DNA of 62,859 nucleotides, counting the filler. It is 7 parts of 7 records of this genome, joined end to end, with 100 filler letters (N's around TTAATTAATTAA, not from the genome) between each part and the next. Parts side by side here need not be neighbours in the genome. Positions count along the whole stretch, not along the records: positions 48,118 to 56,228 come from SRR31156797_4728; 6 more parts are not named here. One strand, written 5' to 3'. Shown piece after piece: positions 10,034 to 56,328 of the stretch (positions within the stretch are counted from its first letter, which is position 1; the number at the start of each line of letters is the position of its first letter). The notes beneath the pieces are model-generated. The model worked only from the letters and a program-made list of their open reading frames with translations. It did no database searches and was not told the DNA's origin. Both the position numbers and the translations under genes were made by a program.

Positions 10034-10133
10034 NNNNNNNNNNNNNNNNNNNNNNNNNNNNNNNNNNNNNNNNNNNNTTAATTAATTAANNNNNNNNNNN
10101 NNNNNNNNNNNNNNNNNNNNNNNNNNNNNNNNN
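10034..10133. other. Artificial contig linker (N-run + TTAATTAATTAA all-frame stop)
   Basis: Identical 100-nt linkers at 10034, 18722, 25272, 34994, 48018 and 56229; gene content or composition changes abruptly across each. Confidence 0.98.
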
Positions 10134-18721: not shown

Positions 18722-18821
18722 NNNNNNNNNNNNNNNNNNNNNNNNNNNNNNNNNNNNNNNNNNNNTTAATTAATTAANNNNNNNNNNNNNNNNNNNNNNN
18801 NNNNNNNNNNNNNNNNNNNNN
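18722..18821. other. Artificial contig linker
   Basis: N-run with TTAATTAATTAA. Confidence 0.98.
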
Positions 18822-25271: not shown

Positions 25272-25371
25272 NNNNNNNNNNNNNNNNNNNNNNNNNNNNN
25301 NNNNNNNNNNNNNNNTTAATTAATTAANNNNNNNNNNNNNNNNNNNNNNNNNNNNNNNNNNNNNNNNNNNN
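25272..25371. other. Artificial contig linker
   Basis: N-run with TTAATTAATTAA. Confidence 0.98.
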
Positions 25372-34993: not shown

Positions 34994-35093
34994 NNNNNNN
35001 NNNNNNNNNNNNNNNNNNNNNNNNNNNNNNNNNNNNNTTAATTAATTAANNNNNNNNNNNNNNNNNNNNNNNNNNNNNNNNNNNNNNNNNNNN
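34994..35093. other. Artificial contig linker
   Basis: N-run with TTAATTAATTAA. Confidence 0.98.
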
Positions 35094-48017: not shown

Positions 48018-48117
48018 NNNNNNNNNNNNNNNNNNNNNNNNNNNNNNNNNNNNNNNNNNNNTTAATTAATTAANNNNNNNNNNNNNNNNNNNNNNNNNNN
48101 NNNNNNNNNNNNNNNNN
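48018..48117. other. Artificial contig linker
   Basis: N-run with TTAATTAATTAA. Confidence 0.98.
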
Positions 48118-48186
48118 AATGGATTCTGCCCCTACACAGTATTGTGTAATTATTTTTGCAGTTCATTATAAATTAAAATTAATTTT

Positions 48187-49833
48187 TTAGAATGTGTATC
48201 TAACAGATAATCCAACTGAGCTCGAATCAGTCCATTTAGTATATGTATCATAACTATCAGCTAAACTATCAGCTAGATACTCAGCTATATCTTCAGTAGT
48301 TACATCATTTTGTCCATCTGAATTATTATCAAATCCGTTTGTGTTAACAAATGTGATTAAAGAACTTGCATCAGTTACTCCATAAGCAGATAAAGCCGTG
48401 ATTAAATCTGCAGCACTGCTAAATCCGTAAGCTTTTAAAGCACCTAATTCAGCAGCAACTAATGTTGCAGAACCATCTGTATATCCTAACTCATTCTCAA
48501 GTACTTCTGTAATTTCACTAATATCCTCAGCAGTAGGGTCTGTATTTACACTAGTACTAATTAATCCGTTATAAAAAACAGTTATAGTTAAATTTTCAGT
48601 CATATCAACAGAAGCTTCAATATGGTACATTGCATCTGCACCTGATAATGATGAAATAGCAGTAGAATCACCTGTAATTCCTAAGAATTTTCCGTCTCCT
48701 CCTGAATAAGCTTTCCCTGTAGTAAAATCAGTTAATTCAACTGATTCAACACCGTAATCAATATATCCATCACTTACACCGCCAAGACCATCATAGTCTT
48801 CACTCTCAACATTTGAGTATTCAGCAGCAAATTTAACTTTCTTTTCTCTAATAGAAGTATTATATACTATTCCCATAGTTTGGATTTCTACACCGACTTC
48901 TTTAGCATCAGGTGTTTCATCCTGCCAGTCAATTTCAAGTACATCAAAACTTTGTGCCTCTTCTCCGTTTAATGATTGGTACCCTATAAATGGCATTAAT
49001 GAACTTCCGTTAGCTAATTCAAAAGAATAAGTTAACTGAGTGTTGAAAACACCAGTTTCATAATCATAATCGGCATCTTTTGAAGTAGTTCCCCCGTCGA
49101 CATTATTTATATCATAATCGCCTCTTGCACCAAGAGCATATTGATAAGCTGCGTTAAATCCAAAATTTCCTACTTTACTTTCTCCCCATATTACATGAGT
49201 TATAGAATAATCATCATCATATCTAACTCCACTTTGAAGCAGATCGGAACTACCCTTTACAATTTGGTAACCAATTCCTGTATCTTTTGAAAAATACATA
49301 TCTAAACCGATCATAGGTTTTTCTCTAAGTCCGGTACCACTATAAGCGACAAAATCATCTTCGAAATCTCCAGAGAATTTATTACTATATGCAGCATTAA
49401 TTGTTTGTTTTGATGTAGATTGTCCAATAGTAAGTCCAAAAGGTCTTTGTCCTTTAATTTCAGGTCTCCACATAACAAATGCATGTTCTAATATTAATGC
49501 TCCGTCAGCATCATCGGGATCGTTAGGATCAACTTCTAGTGATAAATAGTTGAAAAAAGTCGTTTCTCCAAGTTTTCCTGAATAAAAAGCTAAGTCTAAC
49601 TCATATCTGCCAAATTGCTCATCTCTTTCGTCAGCGCCTTCTCTAGCGAAAACGTCTATATCCGGACTATCCAGTGCAGTTTCATAATCGTCTTGAGATT
49701 TGAAATATGCCTCAGCACTTCCTTTGAATTTGATTGCGTAATCTCCTAGTTGATCTTCCATAAATGTGATGTCACTTGCAAAAGTGTTAAAGAACAGGCC
49801 AAGACCTAATCCAAGTGTTGCTAATTTTTTCAT
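48187..49833 (-). CDS. Outer-membrane beta-barrel (porin-like) protein with large acidic insertions
   Basis: Signal peptide MKKLATLGLGLGLFFNTFA after GGAGG; alternating beta-strand pattern; C-terminal VGLSVRYTF barrel signature. Confidence 0.7.
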   Translation of the reverse strand: MKKLATLGLGLGLFFNTFASDITFMEDQLGDYAIKFKGSAEAYFKSQDDYETALDSPDIDVFAREGADERDEQFGRYELDLAFYSGKLGETTFFNYLSLEVDPNDPDDADGALILEHAFVMWRPEIKGQRPFGLTIGQSTSKQTINAAYSNKFSGDFEDDFVAYSGTGLREKPMIGLDMYFSKDTGIGYQIVKGSSDLLQSGVRYDDDYSITHVIWGESKVGNFGFNAAYQYALGARGDYDINNVDGGTTSKDADYDYETGVFNTQLTYSFELANGSSLMPFIGYQSLNGEEAQSFDVLEIDWQDETPDAKEVGVEIQTMGIVYNTSIREKKVKFAAEYSNVESEDYDGLGGVSDGYIDYGVESVELTDFTTGKAYSGGDGKFLGITGDSTAISSLSGADAMYHIEASVDMTENLTITVFYNGLISTSVNTDPTAEDISEITEVLENELGYTDGSATLVAAELGALKAYGFSSAADLITALSAYGVTDASSLITFVNTNGFDNNSDGQNDVTTEDIAEYLADSLADSYDTYTKWTDSSSVGLSVRYTF

Positions 49834-49893
49834 TATTTTCCTCCATAATTTTCGAATTAAACACACCTGTTAGATAACGGGTGTGAGAGTTAA

Positions 49894-49922
49894 ATTATAT
49901 AGCTTTTAGTGTGAAAAGTCAA
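49894..49922 (-). promoter_or_regulatory. Sigma70 promoter for the porin gene
   Basis: TTGACT-17 nt-TATAAT, followed by a 5' hairpin CACACC...GGTGTG (49862-49885). Confidence 0.7.
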
Positions 49923-50050
49923 AGGAAAATAATGACAATAGGACACGTGTTAAAAACAAAAATGTGAATTGAAAAATAAAATGAATAGTGTAATTTTATT
50001 TGAATACATTAGCGGAGAAAAGATTGACTTATTCAATTAAGTGTCGAAAT

Positions 50051-50083
50051 AAAAAATTCCATCCTGACTATACAGGATGGAAT
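50051..50083 (-). terminator. Intrinsic terminator of asnS
   Basis: ATTCCATCCTG-6 nt-CAGGATGGAAT followed by a U-tract on the minus strand. Confidence 0.75.
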
Positions 50084-50098
50084 AAATATTATATTTTT

Positions 50099-51493
50099 TT
50101 AGTATTCACAATGATTTGGAGTTCTTGGGAATGGGATTACGTCTCTGATATTTGACATACCAGTTACATACATTAGGATTCTTTCAAATCCTAATCCATA
50201 TCCAGAATGAGGTACTGAACCATATTTTCTAAGGTCAGTATAGAAGCTGTACTCTTCTTGATCAAGATCCATCTCTTCCATTCTTCTTACCAGAGTATCA
50301 AGATCATCTTCTCTTTGGCTTCCTCCAATGATTTCACCAATTCCAGGAGCTAACAGATCCATAGCTCTAACTGTTTTTTCATCTTCGTTAAGCTTCATAT
50401 AGAATGCTTTGATATCCTTTGGATAATCAGTTACGAATACAGGTTTTTTGAAATACTCTTCTGCTAAGAATCTTTCATGTTCTGTCTGAAGATCAATTCC
50501 CCATTTAACGTCAAATTCAAATTTCTTTTTAGCTTTTGATAAGATATCAATTGCTTCAGTATATGTAACTCTTGCGAATTCATTATTTAATACATTTTCT
50601 AATTTATCTTTTAATCCTTTTTCTACGAATTGATTGAAAAAAGCCATCTCTTCAGGTGCATTTTCAAATAAGTAAGAAATAACGTATTTGATCATCTCTT
50701 CTGCTACATCCATATTTACGTCTAAGTCAGCAAATGCAATTTCAGGTTCGATCATCCAGAATTCTGATGCATGTCTAGCTGTATTTGAATTTTCAGCTCT
50801 GAAAGTCGGTCCGAATGTATATACATTTCTAAATGCCATACAGTAAGTTTCTACGTTTAATTGTCCACTAACTGTTAAATTTGTTTCTTTACCAAAGAAA
50901 TCTTGTTTGAAATCCACTTCACCTTTATCAGTTTTAGGTGTATCTTTCATATCAAGAGTTGTTACTTTAAACATCTCTCCTGCACCTTCTGTGTCACTTC
51001 CAGTGATAATTGGTGTGTGTACATATACAAATCCGTTTTCTTGGAAAAATTGATGTATAGCAAATGATACTAATGATCTTACTCTAAATACTGCTGAGAA
51101 AGCATTTGTTCTTGGTCTTAAATGTGAAATTGTTCTTAGATACTCAAAAGAGTGTCTTTTATTCTGTAAAGGATAGTCAAGATCAGCTTTTTGGAATACT
51201 TCAATTTCTTTTGCTTTGATTTCGAAGTTTTGACCTTTTCCTTGAGATTCTACCAGTTCTCCCTTTACTGTTAATGAAGAAGCAATACTTAATCTTGATA
51301 CTTCATCATAGTTTGCTAAGAATTCTTCTTCGATTACTACCTGAACTCCTTTGAAGAAACTACCATCGTTAAGTTCGATAAATCCAAATCCTTTTGATCC
51401 TCTGATTTTTCTAACCCATCCAGAGATAGTTATTTCTTTACCTAAAAAATCTGATGTGTTTCTGTATAGATTTTTAACTGTTAATTGATTCAT
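50099..51493 (-). CDS. asnS: Asparagine--tRNA ligase
   Basis: [56 protein letters not shown]. Confidence 0.97.
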
Positions 51494-51656
51494 CTTTCCT
51501 CCTAGATTATTTTTATAAGTCAGAATGATTCAGTAAGATTTTTTAAAGTCAAAAGAAGCAATTTGACTTTGATACGAAAATCTTTTAGTCTGACTTAGGC
51601 TTAAAAATAATTATTTTAATCTTTCTTTTCACTAGACTATTAATAAAAAAATAATT

Positions 51657-51842
51657 TTAATTGACATCATCTTCGTGCACTACTTTTATACCATCTAAGT
51701 GACCTCTTACCTGAGCTCTAAACTGTTCAAGATATAGTTGTCTGTACTTTTGTCTTTCTTCAGCTTCTTCAGCTGTTAAATCTCTTTGTTTTGCAAGACC
51801 GGCATAGTAATTTACCATCTTGATTATTTCTTTCATTTCCAT
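51657..51842 (-). CDS. DUF896 (YnzC-like) small protein
   Basis: LT.EE..ERQ..RQ.YL..FR. Confidence 0.8.
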   Translation of the reverse strand: MEMKEIIKMVNYYAGLAKQRDLTAEEAEERQKYRQLYLEQFRAQVRGHLDGIKVVHEDDVN

Positions 51843-51937
51843 TATATACTACTCCTTAATATTTATAAAACTTATATTATTTTTAGTAAATTAGTGTGTA
51901 CAAAATATACTTACATTTTTAGTAAAAATACCTATCT

Positions 51938-51967
51938 ATTATACTCGCTGAAACCTTTATTTGTCAA
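51938..51967 (-). promoter_or_regulatory. Sigma70 promoter for DUF896-asnS
   Basis: TTGACA-18 nt-TATAAT. Confidence 0.65.
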
Positions 51968-52288
51968 GGACAATCCATGACGATATTAATATACTGTGTT
52001 GAAAAATATAAGATAGTTAAAACGTTTAGTTTAGAATGTAAAAAAATGCTCTGTGAGTAAAAAAAATGTAAAAGGTCAATGTGATCAATTGATTCATAAA
52101 ACATATTTTATTTAGAAATGAATTATAAATAGATCGTTATGTGAACTTAAAAAATGATTAAAAAGAGAAACGAACATTATAATATGAAAGATATTATAAT
52201 GTAAAGATGTAATAAGTCATTGACCATATAATTGGAATATGATATTAATTAGTATAGGGGAGAGTTATCTGTGAAGGGAGAATGAAAG

Positions 52289-52531
52289 ATGGATAATGAA
52301 GTTGTAAAAAAGAATTTCAAAAATAGGATAGAAATGTTAGCAAAAAAAATTGATATTGGTAAATTAATTGATGAGAAAATAATTGAAAAAGTTGGAGAAG
52401 ATGAGTATAAAATTTTAGACTTTAACAGATTGCCTAAAAGGATGATTAAAAAAATAAAAAAAGTTAAAGTTGATGACGAGGTAATTGTGGTATTTTCTAA
52501 ACCTGAAAATATTTATAAAATAATTGAGTAA
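52289..52531 (+). CDS. Hypothetical protein
   Basis: 80-aa ORF with GGGAG RBS, followed by a terminator. Confidence 0.6.
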   Translation: MDNEVVKKNFKNRIEMLAKKIDIGKLIDEKIIEKVGEDEYKILDFNRLPKRMIKKIKKVKVDDEVIVVFSKPENIYKIIE

Positions 52532-52549
52532 CCCCCCTTTGGTATCTAT

Positions 52550-52585
52550 AAAAAATTAGAGCAGATTATCTGCTCTAATTTTTTT
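52550..52585. terminator. Bidirectional intrinsic terminator
   Basis: AAAAAATTAGAGCAGA-tta-TCTGCTCTAATTTTTT. Confidence 0.75.
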
Positions 52586-52775
52586 TATGTATTGGAAAAG
52601 TGTAAATTTATGAATTTCTAAAAGTTTCATTACTTTATTTTGTAGAGATAATTTTCGTTTTCATTTTATTTTAATTTGATAGTGAAGCGCTTTTTTTGCA
52701 TAAAATTTAATTATTTTGCTCATAAGGTAATCCTTTGAAAACCAGTGCTTTGCATGTTGAAATTCTACAAAAAAT

Positions 52776-52926
52776 AAAAAAAGCTGACTAAATGTCAGCG
52801 TAATTTTCGAGGCCGGTAACAATGGCGGGGTCATGCTTGTTACCGGCAATTATAAAAGCACTGTAAAACTAGTCACAAGGCGGGGTAATATGTGACTTTA
52901 TTTGTGTTTTACTGTATGAAGTCTTC
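52776..52926 (-). ncRNA. Candidate small RNA with two C-rich-loop hairpins and an intrinsic terminator
   Basis: Promoter at 52933-52961; hairpins at 52863-52912 and 52812-52847, both with an ACCCCGCC loop; terminator GCTGAC-atttA-GTCAGC-U7. Confidence 0.6.
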
Positions 52927-52932
52927 ATTAGA

Positions 52933-52961
52933 AGTATAGCATAAAATATATCAGATGTAAA
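52933..52961 (-). promoter_or_regulatory. Extended -10 sigma70 promoter for the candidate sRNA
   Basis: TTTACA-17 nt-TATACT with TG at the extended -10 position (TGcTATACT). Confidence 0.65.
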
Positions 52962-52982
52962 CCCTATTTACAAAAATAAATA

Positions 52983-54281
52983 TTAAATATTTGTCTCCAA
53001 TATTTCTACCAATTGTCTGCTAAGTTCGGCTGGAGTGAGTATTTTGTCATTGTTTTCCATGAAGATATAGTGTTGCAACATCTTTATTTCATATAAACTG
53101 ATTTTTGTATTTAAGAGCTGCTGACAATAAGCATCGCAAAGGAAAGTATCTTCAATGTAAACCTTAATTGATTGGATGTTATTCGGATTGTATTTTATCT
53201 CAACCTCTTCTCCTATTCGGTCCTTTAGGAGATCATGTTTATAAACCAGATTCTGGTATTTTACTCCTACAGGTTGAATGATTCTTTTACTTCTTACATG
53301 CATCATTAATGCGTTTAAAATCTCTTTTTTAGGAATTATTTCCAGTCTTTCCAGGTTGTTTTCCCAGAACTCTTTTCTAAAGAAATTATGTACATCATTT
53401 ATATATTGTTTGATAGCATTTCGAAAATCAAAGAAGTTTAATTTTGATGGTTCATTTGCTTCGATGTTTTTTAATACGATAGTATTTAAGTTTTCGAAGA
53501 ATGAATCAAGTTTGTAGTTATTAATTCCCGAGAAGAAGTTAATCTCCATATTTAGATTATTTTTTATATCCTCAAGTCGCTTTTTATCCTGTATTTTCAT
53601 ATTATTGACTACGAATTCAACAGGTTTACCATGAACTAAGCATGAATTTTCTTCATCGCTTAGTATACCGGCTCGTAATAAAAATAGAATCTCGTCAATT
53701 TCCGGTATATTGAATGAGATATCAAATGATGCAATTCCTCCGGAGTAATTATCATATACAATATTAAGATATGGTTTCTTTTTACCATCACTTGCCCAGT
53801 CATATATTTCTACATCTAATTGTTCTGATCTAAATTCAAATATTTGATTTGATACTTGTGCCTTGAATAGATCAATTGTAGGATACGTCTTGATAAACGG
53901 ATCTAAATTTTTAATAATCCTATAAACAGTATCGTAACTAATAGTTCGACCTAAGTTTGAATTATCATTATCCAGATACTCTTGGGTTTGTTTATGAGCA
54001 TCCAAAATTTTAATATCCGGATTACCAAAATATAACTCTTTAATATATTCAATTGTTTTTTTATCAGCACTTCTATATGTAGACTTATCTCTTCGAGTGT
54101 TTTTTGCTAAACCTTCTATTCCTTTTTTCTTGTATGTTGAGACCCACCTTTTTAGTGTACTGTAAGGAACACCACTCTCTTCGGCAACAGCTACAAGTTT
54201 CATTTTTTTCTCTATAAAAGGTTTAATGATACTGAATTTCTCTTGTTCGCTAAAAGGATCATTCTTTTTCAAAATTTTCAC
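52983..54281 (-). CDS. Mu/TnsB-like transposase-fold protein (HTH + integrase-like core + Mu_C) with DDE triad substituted
   Basis: HTH VPYSTLKRWVSTYKKKGIEGL...R.DK; ISYDTVYRII; KPYLNIVYDNYSG; Mu C-terminal RIIQPVGVKYQNLVY...IGEEVEIKYNPNNI..IKVY. Confidence 0.75.
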   Translation of the reverse strand: MKILKKNDPFSEQEKFSIIKPFIEKKMKLVAVAEESGVPYSTLKRWVSTYKKKGIEGLAKNTRRDKSTYRSADKKTIEYIKELYFGNPDIKILDAHKQTQEYLDNDNSNLGRTISYDTVYRIIKNLDPFIKTYPTIDLFKAQVSNQIFEFRSEQLDVEIYDWASDGKKKPYLNIVYDNYSGGIASFDISFNIPEIDEILFLLRAGILSDEENSCLVHGKPVEFVVNNMKIQDKKRLEDIKNNLNMEINFFSGINNYKLDSFFENLNTIVLKNIEANEPSKLNFFDFRNAIKQYINDVHNFFRKEFWENNLERLEIIPKKEILNALMMHVRSKRIIQPVGVKYQNLVYKHDLLKDRIGEEVEIKYNPNNIQSIKVYIEDTFLCDAYCQQLLNTKISLYEIKMLQHYIFMENNDKILTPAELSRQLVEILETNI

Positions 54282-54299
54282 CCCAATCTATACCCTATA

Positions 54300-54328
54300 A
54301 TTTTATCTCAAAATTCACTATCTGTCAA
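54300..54328 (-). promoter_or_regulatory. Sigma70 promoter of the TnsB-like gene
   Basis: TTGACA-17 nt-TAAAAT, ending 18 nt upstream of the GTG start. Confidence 0.6.
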
Positions 54329-54527
54329 TGTTTTCTAAGCAGAAGTGTAGGACAGAAAGTTAAAAAACAGAAAAAAAAGTTTAATTATAATACAAAACTA
54401 TGTTTTTGAGCCATAATACTGTTGCAAAAATAATGTATGGTTTATGCGTTTTTCTTCAGGTTTTAGTACGAAAAGATAGGAACAAAAAAGTTTTTTGCAA
54501 AAAAAGCTCATTTAATGACAAAAATTC

Positions 54528-54556
54528 TTGACAAATAGATAAAAAAAGAGTACACT
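54528..54556 (+). promoter_or_regulatory. Sigma70 promoter upstream of ptsH
   Basis: TTGACA-17 nt-TACACT. Confidence 0.6.
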
Positions 54557-54735
54557 TCTTGTAAGTGAAACAGAACGGCGTTAAGAGTTCTAAAAAAGAA
54601 TGATGAGTTCTAAAATGGACAAGGTGATGGGACAGCATAAAAAACAATATTATAACTGAATTTGATTGCAAAATATTGAATTGTAAATTATGCATGACAT
54701 TATTAATTTAAAAAAAATTATGGAGGTAACAAATT

Positions 54736-54996
54736 ATGGTATCAAAATCTGTAGTAATCGAAAACGAAACTGGTATGCACACAAGACCTGCAAACGAATT
54801 TGTAAAGGAAGTTAAAAAATACGAATCAGTTGTAACTCTTGAAGCAAATGGAAAAACAGCTAAAGCAAAATCATTACTTAAAATCCTTTCTTTAGGAATC
54901 AAATGTGGAACAGAAGTAATCATTAATGCTGAAGGTGCAGACGAAACAGCAGCAGCAGAAGAATTAACAGCATTCTTAAAAGACTTAAGAGACTAA
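54736..54996 (+). CDS. ptsH: Phosphocarrier protein HPr
   Basis: GMHTRPA, AKSLLKILSLG, EGADE. Confidence 0.95.
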   Translation: MVSKSVVIENETGMHTRPANEFVKEVKKYESVVTLEANGKTAKAKSLLKILSLGIKCGTEVIINAEGADETAAAEELTAFLKDLRD

Positions 54997-55019
54997 TTAT
55001 TGAACTAAAAATTTAATAA

Positions 55020-55050
55020 AGCTCCCTTTAAATTTATTTAAAAGGGAGCT
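55020..55050 (+). terminator. Hairpin after ptsH
   Basis: AGCTCCCTTT...AAAGGGAGCT. Confidence 0.6.
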
Positions 55051-55281
55051 TGGAAATTTTTTGTGAACTTGTAAACACAAGTTCAGGCTAAAAGAGAAAG
55101 CTCATTAAAAGAGAAAAGTGTATATATTTAATAATTTGTAGAGTGAATGTCTGAGGTTATAGACTCATTATGGTTTAGGATTAGACAATTTCAGTTAATA
55201 CTTTCATTATTGTAATTATGTCGGATATAAACTTCAGTAATTATTTTAACTTTATTAAAAAGCTTTTGTAATTCAATATTA

Positions 55282-56228
55282 TTGATAAAGGAGTGTTGGA
55301 GAAATATGACAAAATTAAAAGGTATAGATGCATCACCTGGTGTTGCAATTGGAACGGTTCTTTTATATGAAGAAAAAGATTTAGTACTAGCAGAAAAAAG
55401 TGAAGTTGGAACAGAGGCAGAAGTTAAAAGACTTATTGAAGGTCAAGCTAAAGCTAAAGTTCAATTAGAAGCAATCAAAGATAAGGCATTTGAAAAAATG
55501 GGTGCAGATAAAGCTGCGATCTTTGACGGGCACATCACTTTATTAGAAGATGAAGAGCTTCTTGATGAAGTTAAAGAAAAAATAGAAGATGATAACATGA
55601 CAGCAGAGTTTGCCTTAAACGAAGGAATTGAAGAATACTGTGAAATGATTAAAAATCTTGATGACGAATATTTAAGAGAAAGAGCAGCCGATTTAGCTGA
55701 TATAGGTAAAAGATGGCTTAACAACATTTTGGGTGTAGAAGTAATGGATTTAGGAAATCTACCTGCGAACTCTGTAATCGTAGCTAAAGATTTAACTCCA
55801 TCTGATACAGCTCAAATGGATCTTGAAAATGTAGCTGGATTTATTACTGAGATCGGTGGAAAAACTGCTCACTCGGCAATCATGGCTAGAACTCTTGAAG
55901 TACCTGCTATCGTAGGAACTAAAGGAATCTTAGAAACTGTAAAAGGTGGAGAGAAGATTATCGTAGATGCTTTAACAGGAGATATTTTAATCAACCCTGA
56001 GGAAACTGAATATCCTACTTACCAAGCTAAAAGAGAAGGATACTTAGCTGCTAAAGAAGAACTTAAAAAATTAAAAGATGCTGTTGCTGAAACAATTGAC
56101 GGACATCAAGTAGCTATGTGGGCTAACATTGGAAGTCCAAAAGATCTTGTTGGAGTTGTTAAAAACGGAGCAGAAGGAATCGGTCTTTACAGAACTGAGT
56201 TCTTATTCATGAATAGTGATAAATTACC
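55282..56228 (+). CDS. ptsI: PTS enzyme I (3' truncated)
   Basis: GIDASPGVAIG, YLRERAADL, DLTPSDTA, GGKTAHSAIMAR, GIGLYRTEFLFM; the true start is probably ATG at 55306. Confidence 0.96.
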
Positions 56229-56328
56229 NNNNNNNNNNNNNNNNNNNNNNNNNNNNNNNNNNNNNNNNNNNNTTAATTAATTAANNNNNNNNNNNNNNNN
56301 NNNNNNNNNNNNNNNNNNNNNNNNNNNN
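56229..56328. other. Artificial contig linker
   Basis: N-run with TTAATTAATTAA. Confidence 0.98.

Follow-up and report, generated by a model that had tools for sequence, protein, structure and literature searches.

What does an intact transposase-like gene do back to back with a gene of the sugar phosphotransferase system (PTS)? The question is raised by the window, i.e. the whole 62,859-nt stretch of DNA analysed here, on which a gene for a TnsB/Mu-like transposase lies divergent from ptsH. The window consists of separate contigs chained by six spacers (Table 1); neighbourhoods can therefore not be read across the spacers, and the true contiguous context of the gene is confined to 48118..56228. 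The initial annotation had taken the product for an exapted DNA- or RNA-binding regulator and not for a mobile element. Exaptation and lack of mobility were borne out by the comparisons below, and the choice between the two nucleic acids was narrowed in favour of DNA. We consider it likely, on comparative sequence evidence, that a Tn552/TnsB-type transposase has been exapted and now works as a DNA-binding regulator dedicated to PTS genes.

Fold and active site of the window protein

The open reading frame (ORF) of 432 amino acids noted initially is intact. Translation probably starts at an in-frame TTG at 54272, giving a 429-aa product, because the nearest homologue (74% identity) begins with MKKND and a GGGGTG Shine-Dalgarno sequence is found 6 nt before this TTG. 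Pfam identified helix-turn-helix (HTH) families at residues 11-66 (HTH_28, E 1.1e-8; HTH_23, E 1.7e-8) and Mu-transpos_C (PF09299) at residues 325-382 (E 1.7e-11), and in NCBIfam the HTH region matched IS481/IS630-type models below threshold only. The integrase core family rve (PF00665) gave no Pfam match in the window protein at E <= 1, and it was absent from the precomputed domains of 13 homologues.

The integrase-like core was instead recognised from its fold. An AlphaFold2 model built on 14 homologues (mean predicted local distance difference test, pLDDT, 82.7) comprises two helical domains, an alpha/beta core, a beta-barrel and two C-terminal helices, in that order. The top Foldseek matches were TnsB of type V-K CRISPR-associated transposons (CAST; E 3e-22), followed by Tn7 TnsB, IstA and MuA. 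Superposition of core and barrel on ShCAST TnsB (8AA5) with VIA-align gave Z 23.5 with a root-mean-square deviation of 2.9 A over 253 residues; for the core of MuA (1BCO), Z was 17.3. The protein thus has an RNase-H-like fold followed by a Mu-type beta-barrel, and the three domains of the initial annotation (HTH, integrase-like core and Mu C-terminal domain) are all accounted for, the core by fold match and not by rve.

Conservation within the family is highest in the HTH domain, which is under selection and in which K44, R45 and W46 are invariant in 41 sequences. The second helical domain has a conserved SYDT.YR motif in which S115, T118 and R121 are invariant, and the invariant residues of the family fall in STLKRW and SYDT.YR. 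In a profile alignment these two domains align to the N-terminal domains NTD1 and NTD2 of ShCAST TnsB (ShTnsB), which, in the accessible text of PMC9527255, recognise asymmetric transposon-end repeats. Short forms of the family, 350-380 aa in length, lack the C-terminal helices.

Substitutions at all three positions of the catalytic Asp-Asp-Glu (DDE) triad had been proposed from an alignment by eye, and the HMMER profile alignment yielded the same result. The family profile matched ShCAST TnsB with E 6e-27 and paired VWQCD-HTRVD-VLLVD of ShCAST TnsB, ungapped, with IFEFR-SEQLD-VEIYD of the family, YTDGG with VNNMK, and VVERPF with KLDSFF. The ShTnsB triad is given as D205, D287 and E321 in the accessible text of PMC9527255; in the printed chain numbering these residues become R151, N226 and D259 in the window protein (occupancies in Table 1). 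The NN pair at the second Asp is invariant in a 14-sequence alignment drawn mostly from the long-form clade. All three residues are lost in the long-form clade to which the window protein belongs, and neither the profile alignment nor the structural alignment revealed intact DDE residues in the window protein.

The closest intact relatives have kept what the family has lost. An rve match was found in 13 of 17 next-tier proteins outside the family versus none of four family members scanned. When 12 outside proteins were aligned, eight carried both Asp motifs (WQADH-type and TDHG/TDRG) together with GK[IV]ER, and a ninth retained WQADH and GKIERL with Asn at the second Asp. The closest intact relatives (E 1e-48 to 1e-30), which we take to be of Tn552/Tn5053 type, are similar in size (about 490 aa) and have an HTH/rve/Mu_C layout. 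Represented by the P0031 group, they differ from the family in that WQADH, YTDHG and GKIERFF are kept at the aligned positions, that genes for an AAA_22 ATPase and for a serine resolvase come next, that they are multi-copy and that they are spread over many phyla. The group comprises 80 kept loci in Acidobacteriota, Nitrospira, Armatimonadota, Chloroflexota, Proteobacteria and others, with three copies in Edaphobacter modestus and four in Ktedonosporobacter rubrisoli. In one locus (L083) the transposase is followed by the AAA_22 ATPase (338 aa) and the serine resolvase (187 aa), a gene order we take to be that of Tn552; in another (L095) the ATPase is seemingly split. Three proteins outside the Fusobacteriaceae family (P0032, P0052 and P0034) have WHIKS, WRACR or WQTAH at the first Asp and no GKIERF, and may represent independent inactivations of the same transposase lineage.

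Distribution, selection and linkage to PTS genes

A profile search of 131 Fusobacteriaceae genomes matched 82 of them at E <= 0.001; fragments and weak matches to true transposases of 620-640 aa were set aside, and 88 matches in 77 genomes were obtained at E <= 1e-20. A broader profile run on a set of 190 genomes of the phylum found 78, namely all of these 77 and one more. The copy number is one in most genomes and two or three in some. Frame lengths range over 350-436 aa, the frames are intact in nearly all 88 matches, and a single clearly decayed copy was seen (contig C4 of genome G011), next to an EIICB gene (encoding an enzyme II, EII, of the PTS) that has stops too. This pair (L165; G011:C4:61000-64600) is the third regulator-EIICB pair of its genome; several stops are present in both genes, which seem to decay together, and the box described below is still there.

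Among 1.84 billion representative proteins, 13 full-length family members were found at E 4e-74 or better, and the nearest proteins outside the family scored 2.7e-48 and weaker. The 13 loci found in named genome records are all from Fusobacteriaceae (Ilyobacter, Psychrilyobacter, Cetobacterium, Fusobacterium and unnamed metagenome-assembled genomes). In a maximum-likelihood tree from a quick search without bootstrap, 51 family rows were split from 14 outgroups with an approximate likelihood-ratio support (SH-aLRT) of 100, and the 34 short-form rows formed one clade, also with support 100. This branch and the sharp drop in bit score indicate that the family has one origin. The orthologues, present in 77 of the 131 genomes, are not sporadic.

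Nei-Gojobori ratios of nonsynonymous to synonymous substitution (dN/dS) were 0.030-0.264 in 37 pairs and 0.031-0.140 for pairs with dS < 1, i.e. far from 1; the median of 0.067 for the gene was close to that of the neighbouring EIIC gene, 0.045 (29 pairs). The contig 48118..56228 encodes no AAA+ ATPase and no TniQ, in line with the initial annotation, which had found no tnsC/TniB, no tniQ and no recognisable transposon end. Nor was an ATPase, a resolvase or a TniQ found beside the gene in the loci scanned, whereas the adjacent AAA+ partner is present in the outgroup locus L083. A repeat search returned no convincing terminal inverted repeats, only 17 weak A/T-rich pairs. The best of them to flank the gene (I3; 52689-52715/54481-54507, 27 nt, 81%) was judged no different from chance. 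The mostly single copies and the constant PTS-linked position likewise give no sign of mobility, and taken together the comparisons indicate that this is a non-mobile host gene, mostly single-copy and under strong purifying selection.

The linkage to ptsH proved stronger than had been guessed, and extends to PTS genes generally. By Pfam scans and whole-genome searches, an opposite-strand PTS gene was found upstream in 32 of 33 loci, the remaining one lying at a contig end. The partner encodes HPr and enzyme I (EI), or EI, in four of these 32, EIIA(Glc)-EIIC in ten and EIIC(B) in 18. The first 12 loci scanned had shown the same upstream PTS gene with varying downstream neighbours, including genes for an aminotransferase, a Leu/Phe-tRNA-protein transferase and an amino-acid permease-EIIA fusion. 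Ten further loci, picked because they lacked the exact DNA pattern described below, had EIICB in nine cases and EIIA-EIIC in one, and in a single genome outside the family set the regulator is followed by the box and then by ptsH-ptsI-crr. With each locus counted once (the window, the 32, L012, the ten and the single genome), a divergent PTS gene (ptsH-ptsI, ptsI, crr-EIIC or EIICB) is present in 45 of 45 assessable loci. Scored over the 131 genomes, the regulator and an EIICB orthologue (E <= 1e-120) were both present in 75, EIICB only in 16, the regulator only in two (both on short contigs) and neither in 38.

Two observations on the partner loci are added here. In the Ilyobacter loci a gene for a LicT-like PRD antiterminator is found upstream of ptsH-ptsI. 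In an uncultured Ilyobacter (L002, 4386-6915) the EIICB next to the regulator is shortened to 424 aa and lacks the EIIB domain, and an IS3-type element (HTH_Tnp_1 and rve ORFs) lies directly downstream of it.

A conserved promoter box and the proposed mechanism

The intergenic regions between regulator and PTS gene contain a conserved box, found by a k-mer screen and then by anchored alignment. The k-mer enrichment against mononucleotide shuffles was uninformative on A-runs, yet pointed to AAATGAGC. A common layout was recognised in 25 non-identical intergenic regions whose adjacent proteins are merely 25-47% identical: in the PTS direction, AAAAAGGCTCATTTT is followed by a T/A-rich TTTGAwAAAAA, the -35 hexamer as CTTGAC, 17 nt and a TATTAT-like -10 hexamer. 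The consensus of the box, AAAAAGGCTCATTTwwTTTGAwAAA, is asymmetric, covers about 24 bp directly upstream of the PTS -35 hexamer and is oriented towards the PTS gene in all cases.

The box is close to unique in the genomes that carry it. The composite pattern GCTCATTT-N11-16-TTGAC has one match in the window versus 0.01 expected, and with a position weight matrix (PWM) the window box scored 26.0 and the runner-up in the 62.8 kb scored 10.1. In five large genomes six of eight pattern matches lie beside regulator copies, and a looser pattern again found essentially just the local site. Over the 131 genomes there are 101 exact matches, and 59 of them lie upstream of a regulator match (88 in all) at a distance of up to 450 bp, a target space of about 40 kb in roughly 300 Mb. 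Most of the pattern-less regulator loci examined have variants with a GGCTCA or GGATCA core before TTGAC, and PWM scores were 16-36 in most regulator loci. In six regulator-less genomes with an orthologous EIICB there is no divergent gene at that place, and the box was absent from all six (best PWM <= -0.7). Since these six have no box, box and protein appear to come and go together, i.e. a promoter cis-element co-occurs with its putative factor.

In the mechanism that we propose, a DDE transposase of the TnsB/MuA/Tn552 lineage would have ceased to catalyse, to work with an AAA+ partner and to move, and the Fusobacteriaceae would have retained the protein as a dedicated transcription factor that acts locally on PTS genes of the glucose family. 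It would bind the box, probably as a monomer, via its two N-terminal helical domains, much like TnsB on a transposon-end repeat; monomeric bipartite binding is suggested because one TnsB protomer covers an asymmetric site of about 24 bp. From about -65..-42 the bound protein would control RNA polymerase at the PTS promoter. We are slightly inclined towards activation rather than repression, because the box abuts the -35 hexamer without overlapping it. The retained core and barrel would serve assembly or signal sensing, and as a hypothesis the core, the barrel or the C-terminal helices might sense a metabolite or a PTS protein. Autoregulation is plausible as well, because where the intergenic region is short (about 130-210 bp) roughly 50-60 bp separate the box from the promoter of the regulator itself. 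The two divergent promoters of the window are about 200 bp apart.

Several points weigh against this regulatory role. Binding of the protein to the box is deduced from co-occurrence alone, and the box may instead be read by another factor, or its flanking A/T tracts may act like an UP element. The exact box pattern is missing from 29 of the 88 regulator matches, and four loci (L025, L027, L140 and L143) have no good box. The Fisher p value of 8e-18 for co-occurrence of regulator and EIICB ignores shared ancestry, and 16 genomes keep an EIICB orthologue without the regulator, so that possession of the transporter does not depend on the regulator. Promoter hexamers this near to consensus are as compatible with repression as with activation. 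The contig with the transposase-like gene is just 8.1 kb long, and the RNA evidence is thin: one metatranscriptome contig (95-99% identity) covers no more of the gene than its 3' end (52923-53069), a second metatranscriptome assembly contig covers ptsH (54676-55021), and expression evidence is negligible overall.

The fold, the dead active site and the purifying selection would fit any non-catalytic DNA-binding role, so that the protein could also be architectural or nucleoid-associated, an accessory of recombination or a regulator of distant genes, its PTS adjacency reflecting an inherited shared promoter region. We regard this as improbable: the box and the back-to-back layout persist whether the partner is ptsH, ptsI, crr or EIICB, there is about one box per genome and it is at the PTS promoter, and loss of the gene goes with loss of the box. 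In G011:C4 both the regulator and its EIICB neighbour have decayed. An RNA-binding regulator would have two candidate targets, the PTS leader, which is long (about 170 nt for ptsH) and carries a GAGTTCTAAAA direct repeat, and a small RNA (sRNA) nearby, for which the sRNA-like unit directly downstream of the gene would qualify. Neither of these is conserved in other loci, however, and Rfam identified nothing there. Moreover, the conserved element lies upstream of the -35 hexamer and is untranscribed in the PTS direction, and the best-conserved parts of the protein are two helical DNA-binding domains homologous to those that TnsB uses for duplex transposon ends (accessible text of PMC9527255). 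The comparisons favour DNA binding over RNA binding, and we consider the RNA alternative quite improbable.

It is also conceivable that the gene is a relic of a site-specific Tn7- or Tn552-like element targeting PTS loci, either decaying and functionless or still mobile with a non-canonical active site. Tn7-like elements do insert beside conserved genes, and the long form has three conserved acidic residues, D156, D161 and D177. D156 and D177, however, align to non-catalytic beta-strand positions that are also kept in the intact relatives. The low dN/dS across genera (0.03-0.14), the intact ORFs, the single copies, the missing ATPase, resolvase, TniQ and convincing terminal repeats, and the fact that the gene faces the 5' side of differing PTS genes and not one attachment site, make this the least credible explanation, and a very improbable one. 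Within the preferred reading of an exapted PTS regulator, a more elaborate history can be imagined, which we offer as speculation that is rather unlikely to hold in full. An ancient Tn552/TnsB-like element would have inserted beside a PTS gene in a Fusobacteriaceae ancestor, one of its transposase-binding end repeats would have become the operator driving ptsG or ptsHI, its transposase would have become a one-component regulator, and the dead metal-binding pocket with its NN pair or the C-terminal, partner-binding tail would sense a sugar-phosphate or a PTS protein such as HPr, EIIA or EIIB. If true, this double exaptation would give bacteria a counterpart of the transcription factors that eukaryotes derived from transposases, here tied into central carbon uptake.

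Known systems and further features of the locus

The window protein shares its domain order with the TnsB proteins of type V-K CAST (ShCAST; PDB 7SVW, 8AA5, 8EA3) and of Tn7, and ShCAST TnsB is its best match in both sequence and structure. Unlike TnsB, it has no DDE triad and no rve, no adjacent TnsC, TniQ or Cas12k and no transposon ends, and it is encoded by a PTS-tied single-copy chromosomal gene. MuA (PDB 1BCO, 4FCY) has the fold of core and beta-barrel and Mu-transpos_C in common with it, whereas identity to MuA is 12% and the window protein lacks the triad, a phage context and a MuB-like partner.

Domesticated DDE transposases acting as transcription factors are textbook knowledge in plants and animals. 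The nearest bacterial precedent that we found is TldR, described in the accessible text of PMC10705468 as a TnpB-derived, nuclease-dead, RNA-guided bacterial transcription factor (a repressor). The likeness is that of a DNA-targeting protein of transposon origin whose catalytic residues were lost and which was taken over as a transcription regulator beside its target genes. TldR differs in having a RuvC/TnpB fold and in being RNA-guided, whereas the window protein has an RNase-H DDE fold and would recognise its site by its own HTH domains. No guide RNA or other RNA family was found by Rfam near the window gene, which sets it apart from systems of the TldR type.

The family would resemble the known PTS regulators, including SugR (DeoR), in being a dedicated regulator encoded beside ptsG or ptsHI. 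Mlc/NagC (ROK) and GlcT/LicT (PRD antiterminators) are regulators of this kind. The signature domains of the known regulators (ROK, PRD, DeoR, LacI/CcpA) are absent from the window protein, which is of unrelated origin; neither Pfam nor NCBIfam matched ROK, PRD, DeoR or LacI in it. No published description of the family was found in the full-text literature, a body that excludes subscription-only papers, and the word 'transposase' occurs 0 times in a paper on the genome context of PTS genes (PMC2405797). Because databases label the family as 'transposase', 'hypothetical protein' or 'Mu transposase C-terminal domain-containing protein', genome annotations misreport it as mobile DNA.

A TnsB/MuA-class transposase appears to serve as a lineage-wide, vertically inherited regulator of the PTS, the core machinery of sugar uptake and signalling, in a lineage that spans gut and oral relatives of Fusobacterium and the fish-gut genus Cetobacterium. 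It would be a natural example of a CAST-type end-recognition module repurposed for sequence-specific promoter control, and the comparative data reduce it to a precise and cheaply testable hypothesis of one protein, one box of about 24 bp and one promoter.

Table 1. Positions of the transposase-like gene, its domains and triad residues, the candidate operator and neighbouring features, counted along the window.
Feature	Position	Strand	Remarks
Coding sequence, TnsB/Tn552-like catalytically dead protein	52983..54281	-	432 aa from GTG, stop-free
HTH domain 1, residues 11-66	54084..54251	-	HTH_28/HTH_23; mean pairwise identity 0.60
Second helical DNA-binding domain, residues 70-128	53898..54074	-	HTH_32 below cut-off; model helices; identity 0.42
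RNase-H-like core without DDE triad, residues 145-310	53352..53849	-	identity 0.29
Mu-transposase-type beta-barrel, residues 325-386	53124..53309	-	PF09299 E 1.7e-11; model
C-terminal helices, residues 396-430	52992..53096	-	confined to the long form of the family
R151, at first catalytic Asp (D205)	53829..53831	-	Asp in 0/41 family members
N226, at second catalytic Asp (D287)	53604..53606	-	D in 18/41, N in 16/41
D259, at catalytic Glu (E321)	53505..53507	-	E in 11/41 family members
Promoter-like site of the gene, TTGACA-17-TAAAAT	54300..54328	-	11/12; top promoter-like match of the region
Candidate operator box CAAAAAAAGCTCATTTAATGACAA (AAAAAGGCTCATTT)	54498..54521	+	about -65 to -42 of predicted ptsH start
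ptsH promoter-like site, TTGACA-17-TACACT	54528..54556	+	-35/-10 layout kept in 25 intergenic regions
ptsH (HPr), divergent putative target	54736-54996	+	Pfam PTS-HPr 1.1e-28
ptsI (enzyme I), truncated by contig end at 56228	55306..56228	+	PEP-utilisers_N, PEP-utilizers, PEP-utilizers_C
First terminator-like hairpin 3' of the gene	52783..52799	-	same strand as the gene
Spacers	10034-10133, 18722-18821, 25272-25371, 34994-35093, 48018-48117, 56229-56328		N44-TTAATTAATTAA-N44

The gene content of the contig is a 559-aa ORF, asnS, a DUF896 gene, an 80-aa ORF, the transposase-like gene, ptsH and the truncated ptsI. The 559-aa ORF (48187-49866, minus strand) matched no Pfam family at E <= 0.001. 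Both the promoter assigned to the transposase-like gene by the initial annotation and its divergence from ptsHI were retrieved (Table 1).

Further signals surround the two promoters. The second-best box-like site of the window, at 54249-54272 on the plus strand (PWM 10.1), has the GGATCA core seen in Ilyobacter and overlaps the start-codon region of the regulator; it could be autoregulatory or due to chance. Within the predicted ptsH leader, the direct repeat GAGTTCTAAAA occurs twice at 54585-54615 (plus strand) with 20-nt spacing. In four crr-EIIC loci (L028, L029, L030 and L033) a second conserved box, GGCTCAAAAAA(A/C/T)TAGAT, is found about 125-140 nt downstream of the main box, presumably in the leader, and L027 carries this element only and no main box.

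Directly 3' of the gene, an sRNA-like unit was noted at 52775-52925 (minus strand; minimum free energy -42.2 kcal/mol), with a promoter-like TTTACA-17-TATACT with TG (52961..52933), a terminator (52799..52783) and two hairpins that both have CCCCGCC in their loops. Neither this stretch nor the intergenic region has relatives at the DNA level among the fetched loci, and both were therefore dropped as parts of the system. Rfam returned nothing credible for the whole window at the gathering threshold or for 51800-54800 at E <= 1.

The spacer between ptsH and ptsI (54997-55305, plus strand) is unusually long, about 310 nt versus 22 nt in L024. It has a terminator-like hairpin at 55019-55051 with a T-run after it, and a partial box core, AAAGCTCATTAAAAG, at 55097-55117 (86% to the box, PWM -0.2), and may be a separate control point for ptsI.

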